From NCBI GenBank assembly GCA_943353165.1, contig CALRAM010000001.1:109803-173802 (forward strand): a stretch of DNA of 64,000 nucleotides, in the 5' to 3' direction. Shown piece by piece: positions 768 to 61,560 of this stretch. Numbering within the stretch: the stretch's first letter is position 1; every line of letters starts with the position of its first letter. The translations under genes were made by a program, and so were the position numbers. The notes below the pieces were generated by a model that saw nothing but the letters and a program-made list of their open reading frames with translations, made no database searches and was not told the DNA's origin. Origin of the DNA: an uncultured Candidatus Saccharimonas sp. (lineage in GTDB: Bacteria; Patescibacteriota; Saccharimonadia; Saccharimonadales; OMJO01).

Positions 768-853
768 GCAGGGTTAGTGAAGCGGTCAAACACAACAGAC
801 TGTAAATCTGTCGGCTTATGCCTTCGTAGGTTCGAATCCTACACCCTGCACCA
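768..853 (+). tRNA. tRNA-Tyr (anticodon GUA), long variable arm
   Basis: Acceptor GCAGGGT/ACCCTGC; anticodon stem ACAGA/TCTGT with loop CTGTAAA; long variable arm CGGCTTATGCCTTC; T-arm GTAGG-TTCGAAT-CCTAC; encoded CCA. Confidence 0.9.
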
Positions 854-861
854 TATAAAGA

Positions 862-885
862 GTCGGGTATTGTACCCGACTTTTT
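862..885 (+). terminator. Rho-independent terminator hairpin after tRNA-Tyr (centre of a longer palindrome, 829-914)
   Basis: GTCGGGTA-TTG-TACCCGAC followed by TTTTT. Confidence 0.6.
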
Positions 886-1020
886 ATATGGTTCCGGGCT
901 GTAGGATACGAACCGTACGGCGTAGCCGTGGTTCGGTGGAATGAGGACGCGCGCAGATGCTTGCATCGAGCACGCCGGAATGGATAAAGGACGAAGTCCG
1001 CTATCCTACACCCTGCACCA
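886..1020 (+). repeat. GC-rich tRNA-flanking structured element, copy 1 (ORF-less), ending in an exact 18-nt copy of the tRNA-Tyr 3' end
   Basis: It shares motifs with 37917-38055 and 61326-61484: GAACC-loop-GGTTC, GGTTCGGYG, GCRCAG-hairpin-CGAG, and AAAGGACGAAGTCCGCTATCC. Nt 1003-1020 equal 836-853. It is visibly GC-rich against AT-rich flanks. Confidence 0.6.
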
Positions 1021-1097
1021 ATTTAACAATCCGACATTTGACGGGTTTTTAAATTGCTCCCGGTCTAAAAAATTCGATTTTTGAGCTAGGTGAATTA

Positions 1098-1381: not shown

Positions 1382-1711
1382 CTATTTATTTTTGAGTGCT
1401 TTTTTTTGGAGTCGTTTTTGGGCTGCAATGCGCACCAGAATATTGAGGCTGGCAGCAATAATACCAACGCCTATCAGCACATAAAATATCGTAAATAGCT
1501 TGGTGCCTGGTGTGGTGGGGTGAATATCGCCGTAACCCACGGTGGTAATAGTGATCACCGAAAAATAAACCGCGTCTATCCAGCTCAAGTGCAGGAACCT
1601 ATGATAAAAGACCGATCCAGTAGCAATCACAGATAAGGCTGTTAGCACCACCCACTTGAAGTGTAGGGCTGTATCAACTGCTTCAGAGGTAGTTTGTTTA
1701 GACATATTCAA
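1382..1711 (-). CDS. minimal two-TM potassium channel (pore-only, KcsA/Kcv-like)
   Basis: 109 aa: TM1, pore helix, canonical selectivity filter TTVGYGD, TM2, basic tail. Confidence 0.85.
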   Translation of the reverse strand: MNMSKQTTSEAVDTALHFKWVVLTALSVIATGSVFYHRFLHLSWIDAVYFSVITITTVGYGDIHPTTPGTKLFTIFYVLIGVGIIAASLNILVRIAAQKRLQKKALKNK

Positions 1712-1771
1712 TATTATAGTCGTTTTTGCATTGGATATCTATATTATAAAAATCTTATGCTAAAATAAATT

Positions 1772-2554
1772 ATGATGAAACCAAAAACAGATCAAGGCAA
1801 AAAACTACAGCGATTCAATTTTATTATGGGCTCTGTGCATCTAGTGCAAGCATCAGCCATGCTGATAATTTTAAATTACGCCTTAAAGCTACCTATTATT
1901 ACTAGATTTTTTGATATAGATCCCAATGGAGAATATGCTGTGGTAACCGAAACGCTAGTTAGGGTACCAATAGCCATTGTTGGCCCACTATTTTTGCTGG
2001 TGGCAGCGTTTTTTCACTTTTTTGTTGCTTCGCCATTGTACGTTCGACGCTACGAGGCAAATATAAAAAATGGTATCAATCCAATGCGCTGGCTAGAGTA
2101 CTCCATTAGTTCGTCGCTGATGATTACAGCGCTACTGATGATGGGTGGACTAATCGAGCTGCCAAGCGTAGTTTTTGTTTTTACTCTGAATTTTTTGATG
2201 AATATCTGGGGCTTAGAGATGGAGCGCTACAATCAGCTAACCAATAAAACATCTTGGTTTCCATTCAATATCGGCATTATCGCCGGCATAGTACCCTGGA
2301 TAATCGGAGGTATTTACTTTTGGGCCAGTACCAACAACATTGCCGATTCTATACCATGGTACGCCCAGCTAGGTTTTGTGGTAACATTTTTGCTATTTAA
2401 TACCTTTGCTATCAATATGTGGCTGCAGTACAAACAGATTGGCAAATGGAAAAACTACGTCTATGGCGAGCGAACCTACATTTGGTTGAGCCTTATCGCC
2501 AAATCGTTACTAGCCTGGATAATAGTTCTAGGCACCCTGAGCGCTACCAACTAG
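1772..2554 (+). CDS. heliorhodopsin (7-TM retinal protein, inverted topology family)
   Basis: 260 aa. It follows heliorhodopsin 48C12 blocks as I recall them: LQRFNFIMGSVHLVQ, RWLEYSISSSLMI (counterion-position Glu109, nt 2096-2098), IAGIVPWI, GERTYIWLSLIAKSLLAW (Schiff-base-position Lys244, nt 2501-2503). Confidence 0.85.
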   Translation: MMKPKTDQGKKLQRFNFIMGSVHLVQASAMLIILNYALKLPIITRFFDIDPNGEYAVVTETLVRVPIAIVGPLFLLVAAFFHFFVASPLYVRRYEANIKNGINPMRWLEYSISSSLMITALLMMGGLIELPSVVFVFTLNFLMNIWGLEMERYNQLTNKTSWFPFNIGIIAGIVPWIIGGIYFWASTNNIADSIPWYAQLGFVVTFLLFNTFAINMWLQYKQIGKWKNYVYGERTYIWLSLIAKSLLAWIIVLGTLSATN

Positions 2555-2632
2555 CGCCTAGCGCCGGCCGGGGCAAAAGGGGTATAATGAAGCGATGAAG
2601 AATTACTACCGAATTATGTTGGGGGCGGGGAG

Positions 2633-2980
2633 ATGAGCGAACTCGAAAAGATGCAAAAGCGAGTAATCGATTTCCGCGACGCACGCGATTGGAAACAATT
2701 TCATAACCCAAAAGATATGGCTATTTCGTTAAATCTTGAAGCATCTGAATTGCTTGAGCACTTTCAATGGAAAGACAGTGAGGAAATAAGTGATTACATC
2801 AAAAAAAACAAGTCATCAATAGCAGACGAGCTTGCCGATGTTATGTACTGGGTACTACTGATGGCCAATGATATAGATGTGGATATTACTGAAAGCTTTG
2901 AAAAAAAGATGAAACACAATGAAGGTAAATATTCGATTGAAAAAGCCAAGGGTAACCATAAGAAATATACTGAGCTATAG
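2633..2980 (+). CDS. mazG: MazG-type all-alpha nucleoside triphosphate pyrophosphohydrolase
   Basis: 115 aa. Motifs: RDWKQFHNPKDMAISLNLEASELLEHFQW and ELADVMYWVLLMAN, a typical small MazG/YpjD signature. Confidence 0.75.
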   Translation: MSELEKMQKRVIDFRDARDWKQFHNPKDMAISLNLEASELLEHFQWKDSEEISDYIKKNKSSIADELADVMYWVLLMANDIDVDITESFEKKMKHNEGKYSIEKAKGNHKKYTEL

Positions 2981-2983
2981 CGC

Positions 2984-5023
2984 ATGGCGCAAATAATAAC
3001 ATTTGATTTCAGCCCAATAGGTTTTGACGAGGTGCGTGATTATCATTACGGCCGTGACTGGCCTGTTGTCTATATACTTGAGTCAAATAACGAAGCATAC
3101 GTCGGTGAAACCACGAATTTTTATAACCGAAGCAGGCAGCACTATGAAAATCCCGACAGAAAGAGGTTAAAAAATGCTCATATTATTACAGATGAAACAT
3201 ATAACAAGTCTGCCGCTTTAGATATAGAATCATTTCTTATAACACATCTTGCCGCTGAGGGTACTTTTTTATTGCAAAATAGAAATGACGGTATACGTGA
3301 TCACAACTACTATCAAAGGGATGAGTACCAGGCAAAATGTGAAGTTATCTGGAAAGAACTGATTGAGAAAAAACTTGTTCAAAAAGAAGTTTATGAGATA
3401 GAAAATAGTGACCTATTCAAATACTCACCATATAAGTCATTGACTGAAGAACAACACGATTTTGTTAAGCAGTTGGTTGAAGATATTGAAAAGGATAATG
3501 CCAAAACGTATGTAGTAGAAGGTGCACCAGGCACCGGGAAAACAATCCTCGCCACATATCTTGTGAAGTATTTGAAAGATAGACGAAGCACAAAACATTT
3601 AAAGATTGCGCTTGTGGCGCCAATGTCGAGCTTGCGCGGGACAATACAGCAGGTTTTCCGTGCAACAGCCGGCCTTAAAGCAAATATGGTGATTGGACCT
3701 AGCGGGGTAGCAAAAGAGGCATACGATCTTGTAATTGTTGATGAGGCGCACAGACTTAAAAAGAGAAGAAACCTCGGCGCTGGATTTGGAGCATTTGATA
3801 ATGTTAATAAAAAACTTGGGCTTTCAAAAGAATCCACTCAACTTGACTGGATTCTTGGGAGTTCAAAGCGTCAGGTCTTGTTTTATGATCAAGGACAGAG
3901 TGTTTTGCCCTCAGACATTCATGACATAGATTTACGTAGCAAGGGTGCGCAATTTTATACGCTCACAAAACAGATGCGCATACAGGCTGGTGAAGAATAT
4001 GTTCTACTAGTCGAAGCTATACTTAATCAAAGGGAAATTATTAGCACAAAACTAAATAATTATGAATTTCAAATATTTGATGATGTCGCAGAAATGCACC
4101 ACGCGATCAGGCTTAGAGATAAAGAGCACGGACTCTCTCGCCTTGTTGCAGGTTTTGCATGGCCATGGTTTACTAATCCAGCAAGTCCTGGCCCAAAACA
4201 AGATTATGATATTGAGATCAATGGTTATAAATTAAGGTGGAATAATAAAACAAAGGACTGGGTGAACTCAACTGGTGCTATTAATGAAGTGGGGTGTATT
4301 CATACAGTACAGGGCTATGGAATGAACTATGTGGGTGTGATTATAGGCCCCGAGCTTTATTATGATGAGAAAAATAAACGAATAACGGTAGATAGAAGTA
4401 AATACTGTGATCGCAATGGGCATGCTGGTGTTACGGACCCTGATGAGCTAGAGCGGTATATTAAGAATATATACAGAACATTGCTTACTCGTGGTATAAA
4501 AGGTACCTATGTATATATTGTTGATGAAAATCTCAGGAATTATTTTAAGATGCTGTTAAACCAAGAAACTGCTCAAGAGCCGCTGGCTGAAGTATTTTAT
4601 AGTGAAAATAAAGTATTGGACTTCCTTAAAATGAAAATGGTCGGAATACCTTTGGTTGGTTCTGCCCCTTGTGGCAACCCAATGCTCGGGGAAGAGAATA
4701 TTGAAGAATATATTGAAGTCGAAAAAAGCAAAATTAGACCCGGCTACAATTACTTCATACTACGTGCGATTGGTGACTCGATGAACCTTGCCGGAATAAA
4801 TGATGGCGATTTAGTACTCTGTCGTCAGCAATTAAAGGCCGACACTGGTGACAGGGTGGTTGCACTCTTAGGTGACAATGTGACAATAAAAGTATATGGG
4901 CCTCGTAAAGACGGCGTGCGATTTCTTTTGCCGAACAGCTCGAATAGTGAGCATGCCCCTATAGCCCCCAGTGAAGGCGATAGTGTACAGGGCATTGTGC
5001 AAGAAGTTTTAACTGCAGATTAA
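2984..5023 (+). CDS. three-domain protein: N-terminal GIY-YIG-like (COG3410 type), DUF2075/Schlafen-like P-loop helicase-type ATPase, C-terminal LexA/UmuD-type S24 self-cleaving peptidase domain
   Basis: 679 aa. PVVYILESNNEAYVGETTNFYNRSRQHY (GIY-YIG-like); Walker A GAPGTGKT; Walker B LVIVDEAHRL. The C-terminus aligns by eye to LexA: IPLVGSAPCG (Cys563-Gly564, nt 4670-4675, UmuD-like cleavage pair), GDSM (Ser599, nt 4778-4780), VTIKV (Lys636, nt 4889-4891). It starts 4 nt after the mazG stop. Confidence 0.8.
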   Translation: MAQIITFDFSPIGFDEVRDYHYGRDWPVVYILESNNEAYVGETTNFYNRSRQHYENPDRKRLKNAHIITDETYNKSAALDIESFLITHLAAEGTFLLQNRNDGIRDHNYYQRDEYQAKCEVIWKELIEKKLVQKEVYEIENSDLFKYSPYKSLTEEQHDFVKQLVEDIEKDNAKTYVVEGAPGTGKTILATYLVKYLKDRRSTKHLKIALVAPMSSLRGTIQQVFRATAGLKANMVIGPSGVAKEAYDLVIVDEAHRLKKRRNLGAGFGAFDNVNKKLGLSKESTQLDWILGSSKRQVLFYDQGQSVLPSDIHDIDLRSKGAQFYTLTKQMRIQAGEEYVLLVEAILNQREIISTKLNNYEFQIFDDVAEMHHAIRLRDKEHGLSRLVAGFAWPWFTNPASPGPKQDYDIEINGYKLRWNNKTKDWVNSTGAINEVGCIHTVQGYGMNYVGVIIGPELYYDEKNKRITVDRSKYCDRNGHAGVTDPDELERYIKNIYRTLLTRGIKGTYVYIVDENLRNYFKMLLNQETAQEPLAEVFYSENKVLDFLKMKMVGIPLVGSAPCGNPMLGEENIEEYIEVEKSKIRPGYNYFILRAIGDSMNLAGINDGDLVLCRQQLKADTGDRVVALLGDNVTIKVYGPRKDGVRFLLPNSSNSEHAPIAPSEGDSVQGIVQEVLTAD

Positions 5024-5056
5024 CGTTATGGCTGCCCCAAAACCCCATAATCATCT

Positions 5057-5090
5057 CCCTACTATAACTGCCGCCCGCCGCGTGGTAAGA
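5057..5090 (+). promoter_or_regulatory. copy 1 of the repeated motif CCCTACTATAACTGCCGCCCGCCGCGTGG..., with a degenerate -10 (TGGTAAGAC) and no downstream + strand gene
   Basis: Near-identical over about 28 nt to the copies at 5745, 6909 and 7913. Confidence 0.4.
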
Positions 5091-5146
5091 CCGGCCCAAC
5101 AGCTTGACATCGACTCGCCCCAAGTTCAGCACTAGATAAGATACTG

Positions 5147-5680
5147 CTACTTTTGTGAAGTGTAAAAAATGCGAGTCTTGTTGGTAAGCAATTCATAATC
5201 CTCGTCGCTGTATGCGCAAATAATTATTTCGCTAATTGGGGCGACTGACTCTTGCTGGTAGCTGTGTATGGCCTCATGTGCTAGATCGATAGCTTCTTCT
5301 TTTGGATAGCCATAAACGCCAGCTGAAATTAGTGGGAAAGCAATGGAGCTTGAGCCACTTTGCTCGGCTAGCCACAAGGACTGTAAGTAGGCGCTCTTTA
5401 GCAGCTCTGAGGTGTTGCGACTGTTATCATAAATTGGCCCTACCGCGTGCACAACATATTTAGCAGGCAAATTGAATCCAGGAGTAATTACTGCCTCGCC
5501 AGTCTCGCAAATACCAATGGTGGTGCAGGCCTCGGCCATTTCGTGCCACCCAGCAGCATCAAAAATAGCCCCGCATACACCAGAGCCACCTAAAAGTTGA
5601 GTGTTTGCAGCATTAACAATACAATCAACCTCCAGCTTTGTTATATCGCCTCGGTGTACTTTGATTTTATTTTTTTGCAT
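5147..5680 (-). CDS. macrodomain protein (ADP-ribose binding / O-acetyl-ADP-ribose deacetylase, YmdB-like)
   Basis: Motifs: GDITKLEVDCIVNAANTQLLGGSGVCGAIFDAAG and IAFPLISAGVYGYP. The ORF extends to 5725, but the Met at 5680 (MQKNKIKVHRGDIT) fits the family N-terminus. Confidence 0.85.
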   Translation of the reverse strand: MQKNKIKVHRGDITKLEVDCIVNAANTQLLGGSGVCGAIFDAAGWHEMAEACTTIGICETGEAVITPGFNLPAKYVVHAVGPIYDNSRNTSELLKSAYLQSLWLAEQSGSSSIAFPLISAGVYGYPKEEAIDLAHEAIHSYQQESVAPISEIIICAYSDEDYELLTNKTRIFYTSQK

Positions 5681-5744
5681 AGCATTATTATAGTCTATAT
5701 TCCTGCTGCAAATAACCCCAAACACTAAACCCCAAAATTCACAA

Positions 5745-5780
5745 CCCTACTATAACTGCCACCCGCCGCGTGTTATTATA
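5745..5780 (+). promoter_or_regulatory. copy 2 of the repeated motif, ending in an extended -10 (TGtTATTAT, 5771-5779) 8 nt before the ATG at 5788 (near-leaderless)
   Basis: CCCTACTATAACTGCCACCCGCCGCGTGTTATTATA. Confidence 0.5.
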
Positions 5781-5787
5781 AATACTT

Positions 5788-6903
5788 ATGGCTAAACCCA
5801 ATAACCTAATTTCTAATTTGCTAGCTAACGTGATCGGTTTTGCTAAAAAAAATACGCTTATTAGCACCGGCATGGCAGTTGTGGCGCTGGCCGTGATTTC
5901 TGGCGTGGCTTTTGGAGCGTTTAGTAGCTCTAGTCCAACCATTGCGCCCACACCGGCTCCTACCACCACGCCGCCTAGCCAGACAAAGCCAGACACCACC
6001 GAGCCTACTGCCACGCCAGCTACTGACCCTGTGGTGACCTATGTACGCAAAAAAACTACCACTCCAACACCCGCACCAACTCCAACACCCGCACCAACTC
6101 CGACCCCCACGCCCACTCCAGTAGAATCTCCACAAATAGTTTTATCGGACAGGACAGTTTCGGCTAGTACGGCTGGACTTACTCAAATAGACCTTACCGC
6201 TATCTACGATTCAGGCTATGGTGGCACGTCGCCGATACCAGGAGTTTTGGATGACAGTTTCGTACCTATGCCCTTGAATGGTAACGACTTCTACTTTTTT
6301 GGTACTAACCACGGGCTAGCCAATACTATATTTTGGAATTCAAATAATGCACTAACCTTCGGCGCAGTATTTAATTCATCAATAGTGAGCATAAACCACG
6401 ACACAGGCCCAGCTATACTGATTGGTAATTATGACAGACTGTTATCGGATATTTATTATTCAAATACAGTAACCTCAGACAGCAAATACAAAATCTATAG
6501 GATGATCGTTAAGTTTGCCGACTATTATACAGATACAACTAACCTAGATGCTGGAATCTACCAAATTAGATTAGTCAAAGAAAATGCGGGAGCAAAGAGG
6601 CAGTGGGTTGAGGTTTCGATTATATCAAGCCCGCCAAGCCCCGGCTACTCAAATAACCCTGCGGTTAGCTACCCGTCTGGCGTAAACGGCTTGGGTCAAC
6701 CACAGGATTCAAATGGTCTGGCAATCGACCCTACCAAGGACTCTCCCTATAACATTACTAGCGGAACGGCTTCATCTTTCATTAATCCACCAGGTTCGCT
6801 CTATTCGACTGCTAGTCCTGCGGTCGGGACAAGCCTTTTGCTGCAAAGTGATGAGCTCGGCAATACCTGGACCTTTACCGAACACGCCTATCTAAATATT
6901 TAG
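5788..6903 (+). CDS. membrane-anchored surface protein with a Pro/Thr-rich linker
   Basis: 371 aa: N-terminal TM segment, PTPAPTPTPAPTPTPTPTP linker (nt about 6057-6120), then a Ser/Asn/Tyr-rich extracytoplasmic domain. Confidence 0.6.
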   Translation: MAKPNNLISNLLANVIGFAKKNTLISTGMAVVALAVISGVAFGAFSSSSPTIAPTPAPTTTPPSQTKPDTTEPTATPATDPVVTYVRKKTTTPTPAPTPTPAPTPTPTPTPVESPQIVLSDRTVSASTAGLTQIDLTAIYDSGYGGTSPIPGVLDDSFVPMPLNGNDFYFFGTNHGLANTIFWNSNNALTFGAVFNSSIVSINHDTGPAILIGNYDRLLSDIYYSNTVTSDSKYKIYRMIVKFADYYTDTTNLDAGIYQIRLVKENAGAKRQWVEVSIISSPPSPGYSNNPAVSYPSGVNGLGQPQDSNGLAIDPTKDSPYNITSGTASSFINPPGSLYSTASPAVGTSLLLQSDELGNTWTFTEHAYLNI

Positions 6904-37884: not shown

Positions 37885-37892
37885 CAAAATGT

Positions 37893-37916
37893 CCACCTCA
37901 TGTAGGTGGTTTTTTT
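37893..37916 (+). terminator. Rho-independent terminator after tRNA-Gln
   Basis: CCACCT-CATGT-AGGTGG followed by TTTTTTT. Confidence 0.65.
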
Positions 37917-38055
37917 GTAGGTTTGACTGCGGTCTATTAGAACCCCACGACAAAGTCGTTAAAAGGGTTCGGCGTAGAGATGCTAGGCGCAGGAGTTTAC
38001 TCCGAGCATGGCTGAACAGAAAAGGACGAAGTTCGCTATCCCTTCAACCCAGTCA
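37917..38055 (+). repeat. GC-rich tRNA-flanking structured element, copy 2 (ORF-less), ending in a diverged copy of the tRNA-Gln 3' end
   Basis: GAACCC...GGGTTC hairpin (37940-37970), GGTTCGGCGTAG, GCGCAG-GGAGTTTACTCC-GAG, and AAAGGACGAAGTTCGCTATCC (38021-38041; 20 of 21 nt match 986-1006). Nt 38038-38055 match 15 of 18 nt of 37867-37884. Confidence 0.6.
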
Positions 38056-38225
38056 GGGTTCGACAAACTACATATTTGTGAGACTAACGGACCATTTTTG
38101 ATTTAGTAATTCAAATACCCAAAATAAAGATCGATATAAAACATATCTATAAAACAAAATATATTGACTCCGTATATGTAATATTGTGTTATAATACTAC
38201 TGTTTAAAAGATACTAGAGAGAAAT

Positions 38226-60700: not shown

Positions 60701-61162
60701 ATGAAAAAGAAGCCAAACATCCCCAAACAGATAGTCAACAGACGCGCCAAGCACGATTACGAGCTGGACGATTCTTTGGTGGTGGGTCTGGAACTAACTG
60801 GAGCCGAAGTAAAAGCCCTAAGAATGGGACATGGTCATCTGCGAGGGTCGTATGTAACAGTAAAAGACAACCAGCTCTGGCTGCTAAATGCCACTATAAC
60901 TGGATCTAATTCGGCACCATTAACAGACGAACAAAAAGTCCGCACACGCAGGTTACTGGCAAAGAGAAAAGAAATAGATGCATTTATCTCTGCCAAACAG
61001 CAGGGAAGATCCATAGTACCCTTGCAGCTTTTGACGGGTGGACGATACATAAAACTACGAATGGCAGGTGGACGAGGCAAAAAACTGCACGACAAACGTG
61101 CTTCTCTAAAAGAACACGACGAAAAAAGAGCTATGAGCGCCGCCATAAAAGCAATGCGCTAA
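60701..61162 (+). CDS. smpB: SsrA-binding protein SmpB
   Basis: NRRAKHDYELDDSLVVGLELTGAEVKALR, KRKEIDAF, KLHDKRASLKEHD. Confidence 0.9.
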   Translation: MKKKPNIPKQIVNRRAKHDYELDDSLVVGLELTGAEVKALRMGHGHLRGSYVTVKDNQLWLLNATITGSNSAPLTDEQKVRTRRLLAKRKEIDAFISAKQQGRSIVPLQLLTGGRYIKLRMAGGRGKKLHDKRASLKEHDEKRAMSAAIKAMR

Positions 61163-61285: not shown

Positions 61286-61293
61286 AAATAATA

Positions 61294-61325
61294 GTCCCAG
61301 CCAAAGGTTGGGGCTTTTATTTTGC
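61294..61325 (+). terminator. terminator hairpin after tRNA-Asn
   Basis: GTCCCAGCC-AAA-GGTTGGGGC followed by TTTTATTTT. Confidence 0.6.
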
Positions 61326-61484
61326 CGTTCTGGAAACCAGAACCTCGAACCGCAGGTTCGGTGTAGCGAACTCACGCACAGGAGCTTCCGCCGAGAAAAT
61401 GAGGAAACGTGCCGCAGGCAGCCCCGGCCTCTCTTCGAGTCTGAGCCTGAGGGCTCATCCCTCATAGTTGAATGACCGGAGCCA
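61326..61484 (+). repeat. GC-rich tRNA-flanking structured element, copy 3 (ORF-less), ending in CCGGAGCCA (the tRNA-Asn 3' end)
   Basis: CTCGAACC (61344-61351) mirrors GGTTCGAG of the tRNA T-loop (61261-61268). It also has GAACC-GCA-GGTTC, GGTTCGGTGTAG, GCACAG-GGAGCTTCC-GCCGAG, and AATGAGGA...GCCGCAG (compare AATGAGGACGCGCGCAG at 940-956). Confidence 0.55.
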
Positions 61485-61560
61485 TAAATAACACCACTGC
61501 TTGCCGCGGGCTTTTTTATGATTTCTGGCTCGATATAACAGCCTGGGCTATAATTTAGAT

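Follow-up and report, generated by a model that had tools for sequence, protein, structure and literature searches.

What occupies the space directly behind the tRNA-Tyr gene of an uncultured Candidatus Saccharimonas sp., where a GC-rich block devoid of genes interrupts the sequence? The block lies near the start of a stretch of 64,000 nucleotides (contig CALRAM010000001.1, positions 109,803 to 173,802), which is referred to here as the window and numbered from its first letter. An earlier interpretation made from the letters alone (the sequence-only reading) had left it between a structured RNA, a hairpin-dependent DNA element, a miniature non-autonomous element that targets the tRNA T-loop, and scars of fold-back repair. 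The comparative data favor the miniature element. The block is a unit of a widespread and apparently undescribed family of gene-less cassettes behind tRNA genes of Saccharibacteria, to which the family is, as far as seen, confined; no earlier description of it was found in the open-access literature. We read window positions 854-1020, with about even confidence, as a gene-less, non-autonomous, hairpin-dependent integrative DNA cassette of ~167 bp. This reading is built on the anatomy of the block and its membership of a family, on strict linkage to tRNA genes in a fixed orientation, on covariation in its stems, on presence, absence and replacement of units between bounding repeats, on tandem arrays, and on near-identical copies of its conserved module, X1, at different tRNAs.

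The block is a composite, consisting of a cassette (terminator, inverted copy and partial direct copy of the tRNA) and, in the T-loop of that partial copy, a 73-nt module with a conservation of its own (Table 1). The long palindrome that had been described at 829-914 is real: its arms are 88% complementary in 844-869/873-898 and 89% in 829-846/897-914, and the best ungapped inverted-repeat score in 760-1100 was 17, compared to 6.8 ± 1.0 (maximum 10) in 200 shuffles. The terminator hairpin at its center (862-880; stem 862-869/873-880) has a terminator-like score on the minus strand and is followed by a run of five T residues on the plus strand. The inverted copy of the tRNA end pairs with 829-853 or alternatively with 1002-1013, and its 16 of 18 matches to the perfect complement are the best of all family members examined. 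The exact copy of the tRNA-Tyr 3' end reported in the sequence-only reading was also found, the 18-mer ATCCTACACCCTGCACCA being present exactly twice. It contains the last 2 nt of the T-loop, the 3' strands of the T-stem and the acceptor, the discriminator and CCA, and its 18-nt boundary recurs in most intact family members. A pairing proposed to close the block into one domain appears in the minimum-free-energy fold as a helix between 881-908 and 1002-1029 (75% over 28 nt). With its GGTTCG flank, X1 spans ~73 nt (930-1002) and comprises a long irregular hairpin, P3/P4 (941-981, tip at 956-967, with a conserved C950·A972 mismatch), and a short hairpin, P5 (989-999, GGAC-GAA-GTCC). The hand count of 35 G+C in the 60 nt of 941-1000 was reproduced, and the G+C fraction is 0.59 in 930-1002 versus 0.40 in the whole window. 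Open reading frames (ORFs) across the block are short and overlapping only, in keeping with the earlier statement that it holds no integrase, transposase or plausible ORF. Since the direct repeat extends beyond its 18 nt with ~78% identity (836-871 versus 1003-1038, and 881-898 versus 1046-1063), positions 1003-1065 can be taken as the start of a second, older and truncated unit.

The window contains two further members. The pattern GGTTCGGYG-N12-GCRCAG-N10-CGAG has exactly three occurrences, at 930, 37966 and 61355, all on the plus strand, compared to 0.03 in shuffles, so that the core said to recur at three tRNAs does so, with all of the small hairpins listed for it. The cores start 70-82 nt past tRNA-Tyr, tRNA-Gln and tRNA-Asn, respectively, and three of the six tRNA genes in the window thus carry a unit. 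A covariance model of the family, R1, found these three copies in the window and no others, and scored 930-1020 at 83.2 bits. The nearly identical stretch previously noted at 986-1006 and 38021-38041 includes the 20-mer AAGGACGAAGTYCGCTATCC, which is shared at 987 and 38022 (the tRNA-Gln copy). In the tRNA-Gln member a terminator (37893-37909) precedes X1 (37966-38037) and a decayed repeat with 3 mismatches (38038-38055). The tRNA-Asn member holds an X1 remnant (61355-61438) and CCGGAGCCA at 61476-61484, and its distal repeat (61421-61484) is split by a nested insertion of ~43 nt (TCTTCGAGTCTGAGCCTGAG.GCTCATCCCTCA.AGT.GAATGA). Because an orthologous tRNA-Asn element with the same nested insertion is present in locus L004, this cassette is old and vertically inherited. 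The sequence-only reading had recognized no named RNA family here, and the blocks match none in Rfam: no Rfam 15 family reaches its gathering threshold in the window except for the six tRNAs, permissive Rfam scans of the three blocks gave sub-threshold chance matches only, and ARAGORN detected no tRNA or transfer-messenger RNA (tmRNA) in 854-1100, 37885-38100 or 61286-61520.

Table 1. Parts of the block behind tRNA-Tyr and the two further family members in the window
Feature	Position	Strand	Remarks
tRNA-Tyr(GTA)	768..853	+	Intact, CCA encoded; ARAGORN; Rfam tRNA model 63.2 bits
Proximal 18-nt repeat copy	836..853	+	tRNA positions 59-76; exact duplicate of 1003-1020
A-rich trailer, terminator hairpin, T-rich tract	854..888	.	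Center of the long palindrome
Inverted ("mirror") copy of tRNA-Tyr positions ~51-76	889..914	+	One bulge, ~4 mismatches
Small central hairpin ACGGC-GTA-GCCGT	915..929	+	Between inverted and direct tRNA-derived arms
GGTTCG, T-arm 5' half (tRNA positions 52-57) of partial direct tRNA copy	930..935	+	Left flank of X1; pairs with 909-914
X1 core, conserved hairpin module	936..1002	+	P3/P4 and P5; GCT at end
Distal 18-nt repeat copy	1003..1020	+	Read as displaced tRNA 3' end; flank beyond it conserved in relative L247
Older trailer, weak terminator (1028-1047), start of older inverted copy	1021..1075	+	Remnant of an earlier unit, common to L247
Second member, behind tRNA-Gln(TTG)	37885..38055	+	R1 69.3 bits
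Third member, degenerate, behind tRNA-Asn(GTT)	61286..61484	+	R1 34.1 bits

A covariance-model search for further copies, as suggested in the sequence-only reading, showed how widespread the family is. Scanning species-representative genomes with the core pattern gave 118 stretches, most of them from metagenome-assembled genomes (MAGs) of Saccharibacteria/Saccharimonadales and the rest chance matches in GC-rich genomes. R1 was built from 29 copies and found 93 in Saccharibacteria loci; its E-values are rough, and a few matches are labelled non-Saccharibacteria in MAGs whose bins may be contaminated. On the question raised there, whether copies always lie 3' of tRNA genes, 69 of the 93 follow a same-strand tRNA gene at a distance of no more than 450 nt, with 25 anticodon types represented, and in none of the 93 is the nearest tRNA on the opposite strand. 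The copies outside the 69 are in arrays, at contig edges or behind later insertions. One locus, from a MAG labelled Babeliales (L044, 7407-7591), has X1 only 5 nt past tRNA-Ser(CGA), with neither terminator nor inverted copy, and is rearranged, given that its 18-nt tail matches another Ser tRNA type. A phage or plasmid origin was considered and rejected, as the five chance pattern matches in viral contigs all failed R1 and no core was present in the phage or plasmid collections.

The cassettes are tied to their own tRNA by sequence as well as by position. Among the 61 pattern matches with a tRNA upstream, 32 have an exact 17-18 nt copy of the 3' end of that tRNA after the core, and this copied end usually starts at position 59 of the T-loop, regardless of whether that base is A, G, T or C. 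On the left side of the core, the bases before GGTTCG track the T-stem of the local tRNA (55 matches versus 31.6 expected, p<0.0002, in 29 elements), and in some elements the match reaches the variable loop (14 nt in L008). Taken together, the tRNA-copy tail and the tracking on the left side indicate that the right half of the block is a copy of approximately tRNA positions 44-76, with X1 at position 58. In a shorter variant, L231, the insert is exactly between A58 and A59. At the X1 junction A58 is usually lost or altered. The type of small hairpin at 915-929 is found in L032 and L046 also.

Evidence that the units insert comes from orthologous sites. Exact look-up of the flanking tetratricopeptide repeat (TPR) protein gave no match, and orthologous tRNA-Tyr loci were instead recovered through its homologues. 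Relatives with empty sites, which the sequence-only reading had proposed to look for, do exist: L120 (flanking protein 89% identical) is empty, and L122 has a block with a different core at the same locus. A metagenome scan using the 3' half of tRNA-Tyr yielded 120 loci, two of which, L210 and L247, match the window upstream of the gene at 96-97% identity. Both are identical to the window through the tRNA CCA and then continue into an unrelated 81-nt cassette with another terminator and no X1, so that the 854-888 part of the window is entirely different in them, and in L247 identity to the window resumes at the distal repeat and extends through ATTTAACAATCCGACATTTG.CGGGTTTTTAAATTGCT.CCGGTCT. 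The repeats therefore bound an insertion polymorphism at orthologous sites, with the tRNA intact, as for known tRNA-integrating elements. More generally, a second copy of the tRNA end was present in 27 of 107 metagenomic tRNA-Tyr loci, and several cassette families, some of them without X1, are told apart by repeats of 15, 18 and 19-23 nt. At least four other cores unrelated to X1 were seen behind tRNAs, with tRNA-end repeats of 15, 20, 21, 22 or 23 nt (L122 3466-3660, L153, L235, L098, L147, L205, L240, L163, L135, L158 and L140).

These polymorphisms speak against the idea, raised in the sequence-only reading as fold-back repair scars, that the block is a local by-product of replication or repair at a tRNA gene with high transcription. 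In that case the copies would arise by fold-back priming at two palindromes, that of the terminator and TTCGAA in the T-loop, and no mobile element would be involved. The direct-inverted-direct layout centered on two palindromes is what such priming would leave, and some inverted copies have small flipped segments (GAACC to GGTTC) typical of quasi-palindrome template switching. However, it does not account for a conserved, covarying 73-nt core at 25 tRNA types in many genomes, for cores that are 96% identical in unrelated flanks, or for an unrelated cassette with a different terminator between the same repeats in a relative that is 96-97% identical. We regard fold-back alone as very improbable and largely refuted; it could survive only as the generator of the tRNA-derived arms during insertion, and template switching may shape the arms of the cassettes.

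X1 appears to have a history that is separate from that of the cassettes holding it. In 37 of 51 cases the nearest-neighbor core is located at a different tRNA type, and over the span GGTTCGG to GCT the L062 (Met) core shares 96% identity with that of L046 (Lys), even though their terminators, inverted copies and 18-mers are unrelated. For this reason, the possibility that the whole 167-nt unit is a conserved mobile element was rejected. In one MAG, a copy at tRNA-Ser(GGA) bears the 18-mer of tRNA-Ser(GCT). A pair of cassettes differing solely by the presence of X1 was searched for among the loci and none was found. Units also accumulate: tandem arrays occur, for example, in L118 and L117 (other multi-copy loci are in L039 and L078), distal array copies are more decayed, and the core score drops as mismatches in the 18-mer increase (Spearman rho -0.44, p=3e-4). 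In L008 (4260-7660), two X1 blocks 3071 bp apart are 90% identical over 163 nt, including flank past the 17-nt tRNA-Met repeat, and three membrane-protein ORFs lie between them, so that a cassette can bring genes with it or be copied along with genes.

Whether the conserved hairpins of X1 function in RNA or in DNA is central to the interpretation of the block. Covariation was counted on 72 distinct copies with a hand-mapped structure: 82.6% of stem cells were paired compared to 68.8% in shuffles (none of 500 as high), double-sided changes numbered 181 cells compared to 59, and the covariation score was 0.40, compared to 0.17 in shuffles and 0.04-0.10 when partners were slid by 1-3 columns. Covariation of this strength indicates that the hairpins are under selection. 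Wobble pairs are rare in the covarying stems, and G·U (8) is no more frequent there than A·C (10), in contrast to 91 versus 4 when 124 tRNAs of these loci are counted over their acceptor and T stems (Fisher p=5e-7), and there is no wobble pair among 128 in the P5 stems. These wobble statistics favor DNA hairpins over RNA, and we infer that the constraint on the stems acts on DNA hairpins with a few deliberate mismatches. Read on the minus strand, the invariant C·A and a frequent A·C become G·U, but for another pair it is the plus strand that has G·U; with the core alone, both strands fold equally well.

The RNA side of the sequence-only reading has its most explicit form in the proposal that X1 and the tRNA-derived arms are a gene for a structured, tRNA-shaped non-coding RNA. 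Such an RNA, made by read-through or from its own promoter, would have an NCCA "acceptor" helix and three hairpins, and would be a mimic, a decoy or a processing substrate for the 3' end of the neighboring tRNA. The fold of the window copy does have a four-way junction with a free ...CCA tail, and the proposal would also account for the strong covariation of P3/P4, the many conserved unpaired positions, the frequent GCUUGC-type tetraloops in P4, the plus-strand folding advantage seen once the upstream arm is added (52 of 73 copies), and the presence of a copy at about half of the tRNAs in the window. Against it, in addition to the parity of G·U and A·C and the P5 stems free of wobble pairs, is that the block sits behind an intrinsic terminator and a scan found no promoter-like site adjoining it on either strand. 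The closing helix is poor in most copies, copies decay together with the tRNA-end repeat and are absent or replaced in close relatives, and no Rfam family matches. Adjacency to the cognate tRNA and an exactly bounded repeat are predictions of insertion that a trans-acting RNA does not need. It is the wobble parity, the terminator with no promoter-like site and the decay with the repeat that weaken this proposal, and we consider it unlikely.

A second kind of RNA was also weighed, in which the conserved module is either a guide RNA (a scaffold with an 18-nt 3' guide, like TnpB omega-RNA or a homing crRNA, with TTCGA as the adjacent motif) or part of a minus-strand RNA having an 18-nt tRNA primer-binding site for a reverse transcriptase. 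A conserved scaffold followed by a tRNA-specific 18-mer fits the guide, as does the fact that TTCGA precedes the genomic target and not the copy. The 18 nt from the tRNA 3' end up to position 58 also match retroviral primer-binding sites in length, and folding of the minus strand is strong in the window copy (z = -4.1) and better than that of its plus strand. Conversely, no TnpB, IscB, Cas, IS110 recombinase or reverse transcriptase is linked to the copies, the repeats of other cassette families run from 15 to 23 nt, a guide would be sequestered by the inverted copy, Rfam gave no match, and the minus strand is not favored across the family. The minus-strand RNA was rejected on the last of these points, there being no minus-strand advantage over 73 copies and a pair biased in the opposite direction, and we find either version hardly credible. 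A reverse-transcription signature at m1A58 was likewise rejected: the window inverted copy has T for A58, but the other copies do not, and the junctions of other cassette families are at 54-62.

Integration at the 3' part of a tRNA gene, a restored tRNA, a partial 3' end as direct repeat and arrays of remnants are features that the cassettes share with tRNA-integrating genomic islands, tycheposons and their gene-poor derivatives, the cis-mobilizable elements (CIMEs). In tycheposons, the incoming element provides the new tRNA 3' end and older units are pushed outward (doi 10.1101/2020.12.28.424599). The known elements, however, are kilobases long and encode an integrase or derive from elements that do, whereas the cassettes are 80-230 nt long and geneless with no linked integrase; they also contain the target in inverted form and a hairpin module that is conserved and covaries. 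It could be argued that the cassettes are leftovers of integrase-carrying islands or prophages, X1 being an arm of the attachment site and the short units being CIME-like deletion derivatives moved in trans. The tRNA 3'-end direct repeats, restored tRNA and displacement of older units by newer ones are the classic signature of such islands (doi 10.1101/2020.12.28.424599), the gene-carrying 3-kb unit of L008 is bounded by two X1 blocks, and tRNA-Gln is indeed a site of integration in these genomes for elements that encode large serine recombinases. These elements are in L111 (1649-5634) and L110 (78-5994), are 3.8-5.7 kb long, and have a gene end overlapping tRNA-Gln. They are also the sole cases among the 93 copies of an integrase between tRNA and X1 core, and their junctions reveal a separate, later element between tRNA-Gln and a pre-existing cassette, with the crossover in CAGCCA and not in the T-loop. 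Accordingly, the large serine recombinase was rejected as the cassette integrase. Island leftovers also require parent elements, of which none were seen among these loci; neither the viral contigs nor the phage and plasmid collections hold the core, and no gene family is enriched near the copies. Random deletion would not yield the same 150-170-nt unit some 90 times, and X1 stays the same where the remainder of the cassette is unrelated. We therefore judge an origin from islands to be improbable, somewhat more so than the tRNA-shaped RNA. As a separate observation, perfect inverted repeats of 124 bp lie on either side of the L111 recombinase gene and another perfect inverted pair, of 100 bp, is close by, an arrangement that could be an invertible segment or an assembly artefact.

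The integrative DNA cassette that we favor also has parallels among systems that use folded DNA. At integron attC sites and the attachment site of CTX phage, a folded single strand imitates the duplex target. The cassettes resemble these in forming arrays of units, with entry next to the tRNA suggested by the decay of distal units and by L247, in the terminal imperfect palindrome whose folded strand would imitate a double-stranded target and whose stem has bulges and mismatches, and in arms that are conserved more in structure than in sequence. They differ from attC in that there is no integron integrase, attI or GTTRRRY core site (RYYYAAC...GTTRRRY sites were not found at the cassette junctions and no integron integrase is nearby), each palindrome arm copies the 3' end of the local tRNA, genes are lacking from most cassettes, X1 is conserved in sequence whereas the attC center is variable, and the use of single-stranded DNA is suggested here by analogy. 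X1 on its own resembles the miniature derivatives of IS200/IS605 elements: it has no terminal inverted repeats of its own, makes no target duplication, has a fixed orientation and is inserted right after TTCGA of the T-loop (GGTTCG|X1|N59), with hairpins near both ends that each follow a similar purine-rich motif (AGCGA-GGAC and AGCGGAAAA-GGAC) and with the strand-symmetric stem conservation that DNA hairpins would give. The differences are that X1 is present only in tRNA-derived T-loops, a specificity far beyond a pentanucleotide, that its two hairpins are not near-identical, that the junction base varies with A58 usually lost or changed, and that no Y1 transposase was found in 1.65 Mb of loci. 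The 3' ends of tRNA genes are targets of casposons, and CRISPR arrays are extended at the leader-proximal end; like casposons and CRISPR spacers, the cassettes integrate in a staggered way at a specific site and duplicate a defined segment there, but they have no Cas1 gene, no terminal inverted repeats and repeat lengths that vary from 15 to 23 nt between families. They are not miniature inverted-repeat transposable elements either, as the inverted arms are local tRNA copies that differ at each locus and there is no short flanking duplication.

From these parallels we propose the following scheme. Cassettes would insert successively at tRNA gene 3' ends, each supplying a replacement 3' end and its own terminator, and the previous 3' end would be displaced downstream to become the direct repeat (18 nt here, from T-loop position 59). 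The inverted and partial direct copies of the 3' third of the tRNA would fold on a single strand into a stem that imitates the double-stranded end of the tRNA gene. The T-loop of that direct copy holds X1 (~73 nt, two hairpins), which follows tRNA position 57/58, precedes position 59 and has probably itself moved between different tRNA-derived T-loops. By analogy with integron attC, CTX-phage attP and IS200/IS605 ends, the hairpins would act in single-stranded DNA, on which a recombinase or transposase encoded elsewhere may act in trans.

It is important to note that several observations weigh against this scheme. No integrase is in the cassette, no recombinase or transposase is near the three window copies, and no protein family, recombinases and transposases included, is enriched next to the copies at 72 loci. 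A tblastn search of the 1.65 Mb of fetched loci for an IS200/IS605 Y1 transposase, with approximate IS200 and IS608 TnpA sequences as queries, found none. A double-stranded circle of 167 nt would be an awkward recombination substrate, and the single-stranded route is an inference. The inverted copy is well preserved only in the window element and weak in most others, and may not be needed. The advantage of the plus strand with the upstream arm fits a plus-strand RNA as well as single-stranded DNA, and the many conserved unpaired bases of X1 with its invariant C·A mismatch would suit a functional RNA too. Lastly, the loci were picked using a pattern taken from the window, so the copy counts are biased.

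The surroundings of the window copies were also inspected. The tRNA-Tyr gene is directly preceded by tRNA-Thr(TGT) (ARAGORN), and the assemblies of relatives L119, L123 and L124 end ~180 nt past the TPR gene, inside the region of tRNA-Thr, tRNA-Tyr and cassette, which suggests that the palindromes and repeats, or strain heterogeneity at the site, disrupt assembly. Just 3' of the cassette (1382-6903) are genes of accessory or defence-like appearance, namely a K+ channel, heliorhodopsin, a MazG-like protein and a Macro-domain protein, as well as a fusion of a GIY-YIG nuclease with a Schlafen-type helicase and S24 peptidase (2984-5023). The smpB gene (60701-61162) is immediately 5' of tRNA-Asn and its cassette, and no tmRNA gene was detected in the window. 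Cumulative GC skew peaks near 30-33 kb and then declines, which could be a switch like that at a replication terminus or a change in gene orientation.

Genomes of Saccharibacteria are ~1 Mb in size, and in the environmental loci with one tRNA-Tyr sequence about a quarter have a cassette. At tRNA loci the cassettes cause metagenome assemblies to break, and they are markers for hotspots of genome plasticity. Even under an ordinary reading, the family offers a covariance model, a marker for strain typing and a concrete target in the search for a recombinase. A more far-reaching interpretation, which we put forward as possible but doubtful, is that Saccharibacteria have an integration system free of protein genes and not recognized before, in which cassettes "programmed" by an inverted and a direct copy of a tRNA 3' end fold on a single strand to mimic the end of the tRNA gene and a host enzyme splices them into the region of the T-loop, much as attC sites recombine in integrons but with tRNA genes as targets, and that X1 represents a new class of miniature single-stranded DNA element for T-loop DNA hairpins. 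Under this interpretation, natural competence, as a supplier of single-stranded DNA, could transmit the cassettes. If true, such a hairpin-programmed mechanism would be a new way for geneless DNA to target an essential, universal sequence without destroying it, and possibly a compact, reprogrammable integration module.

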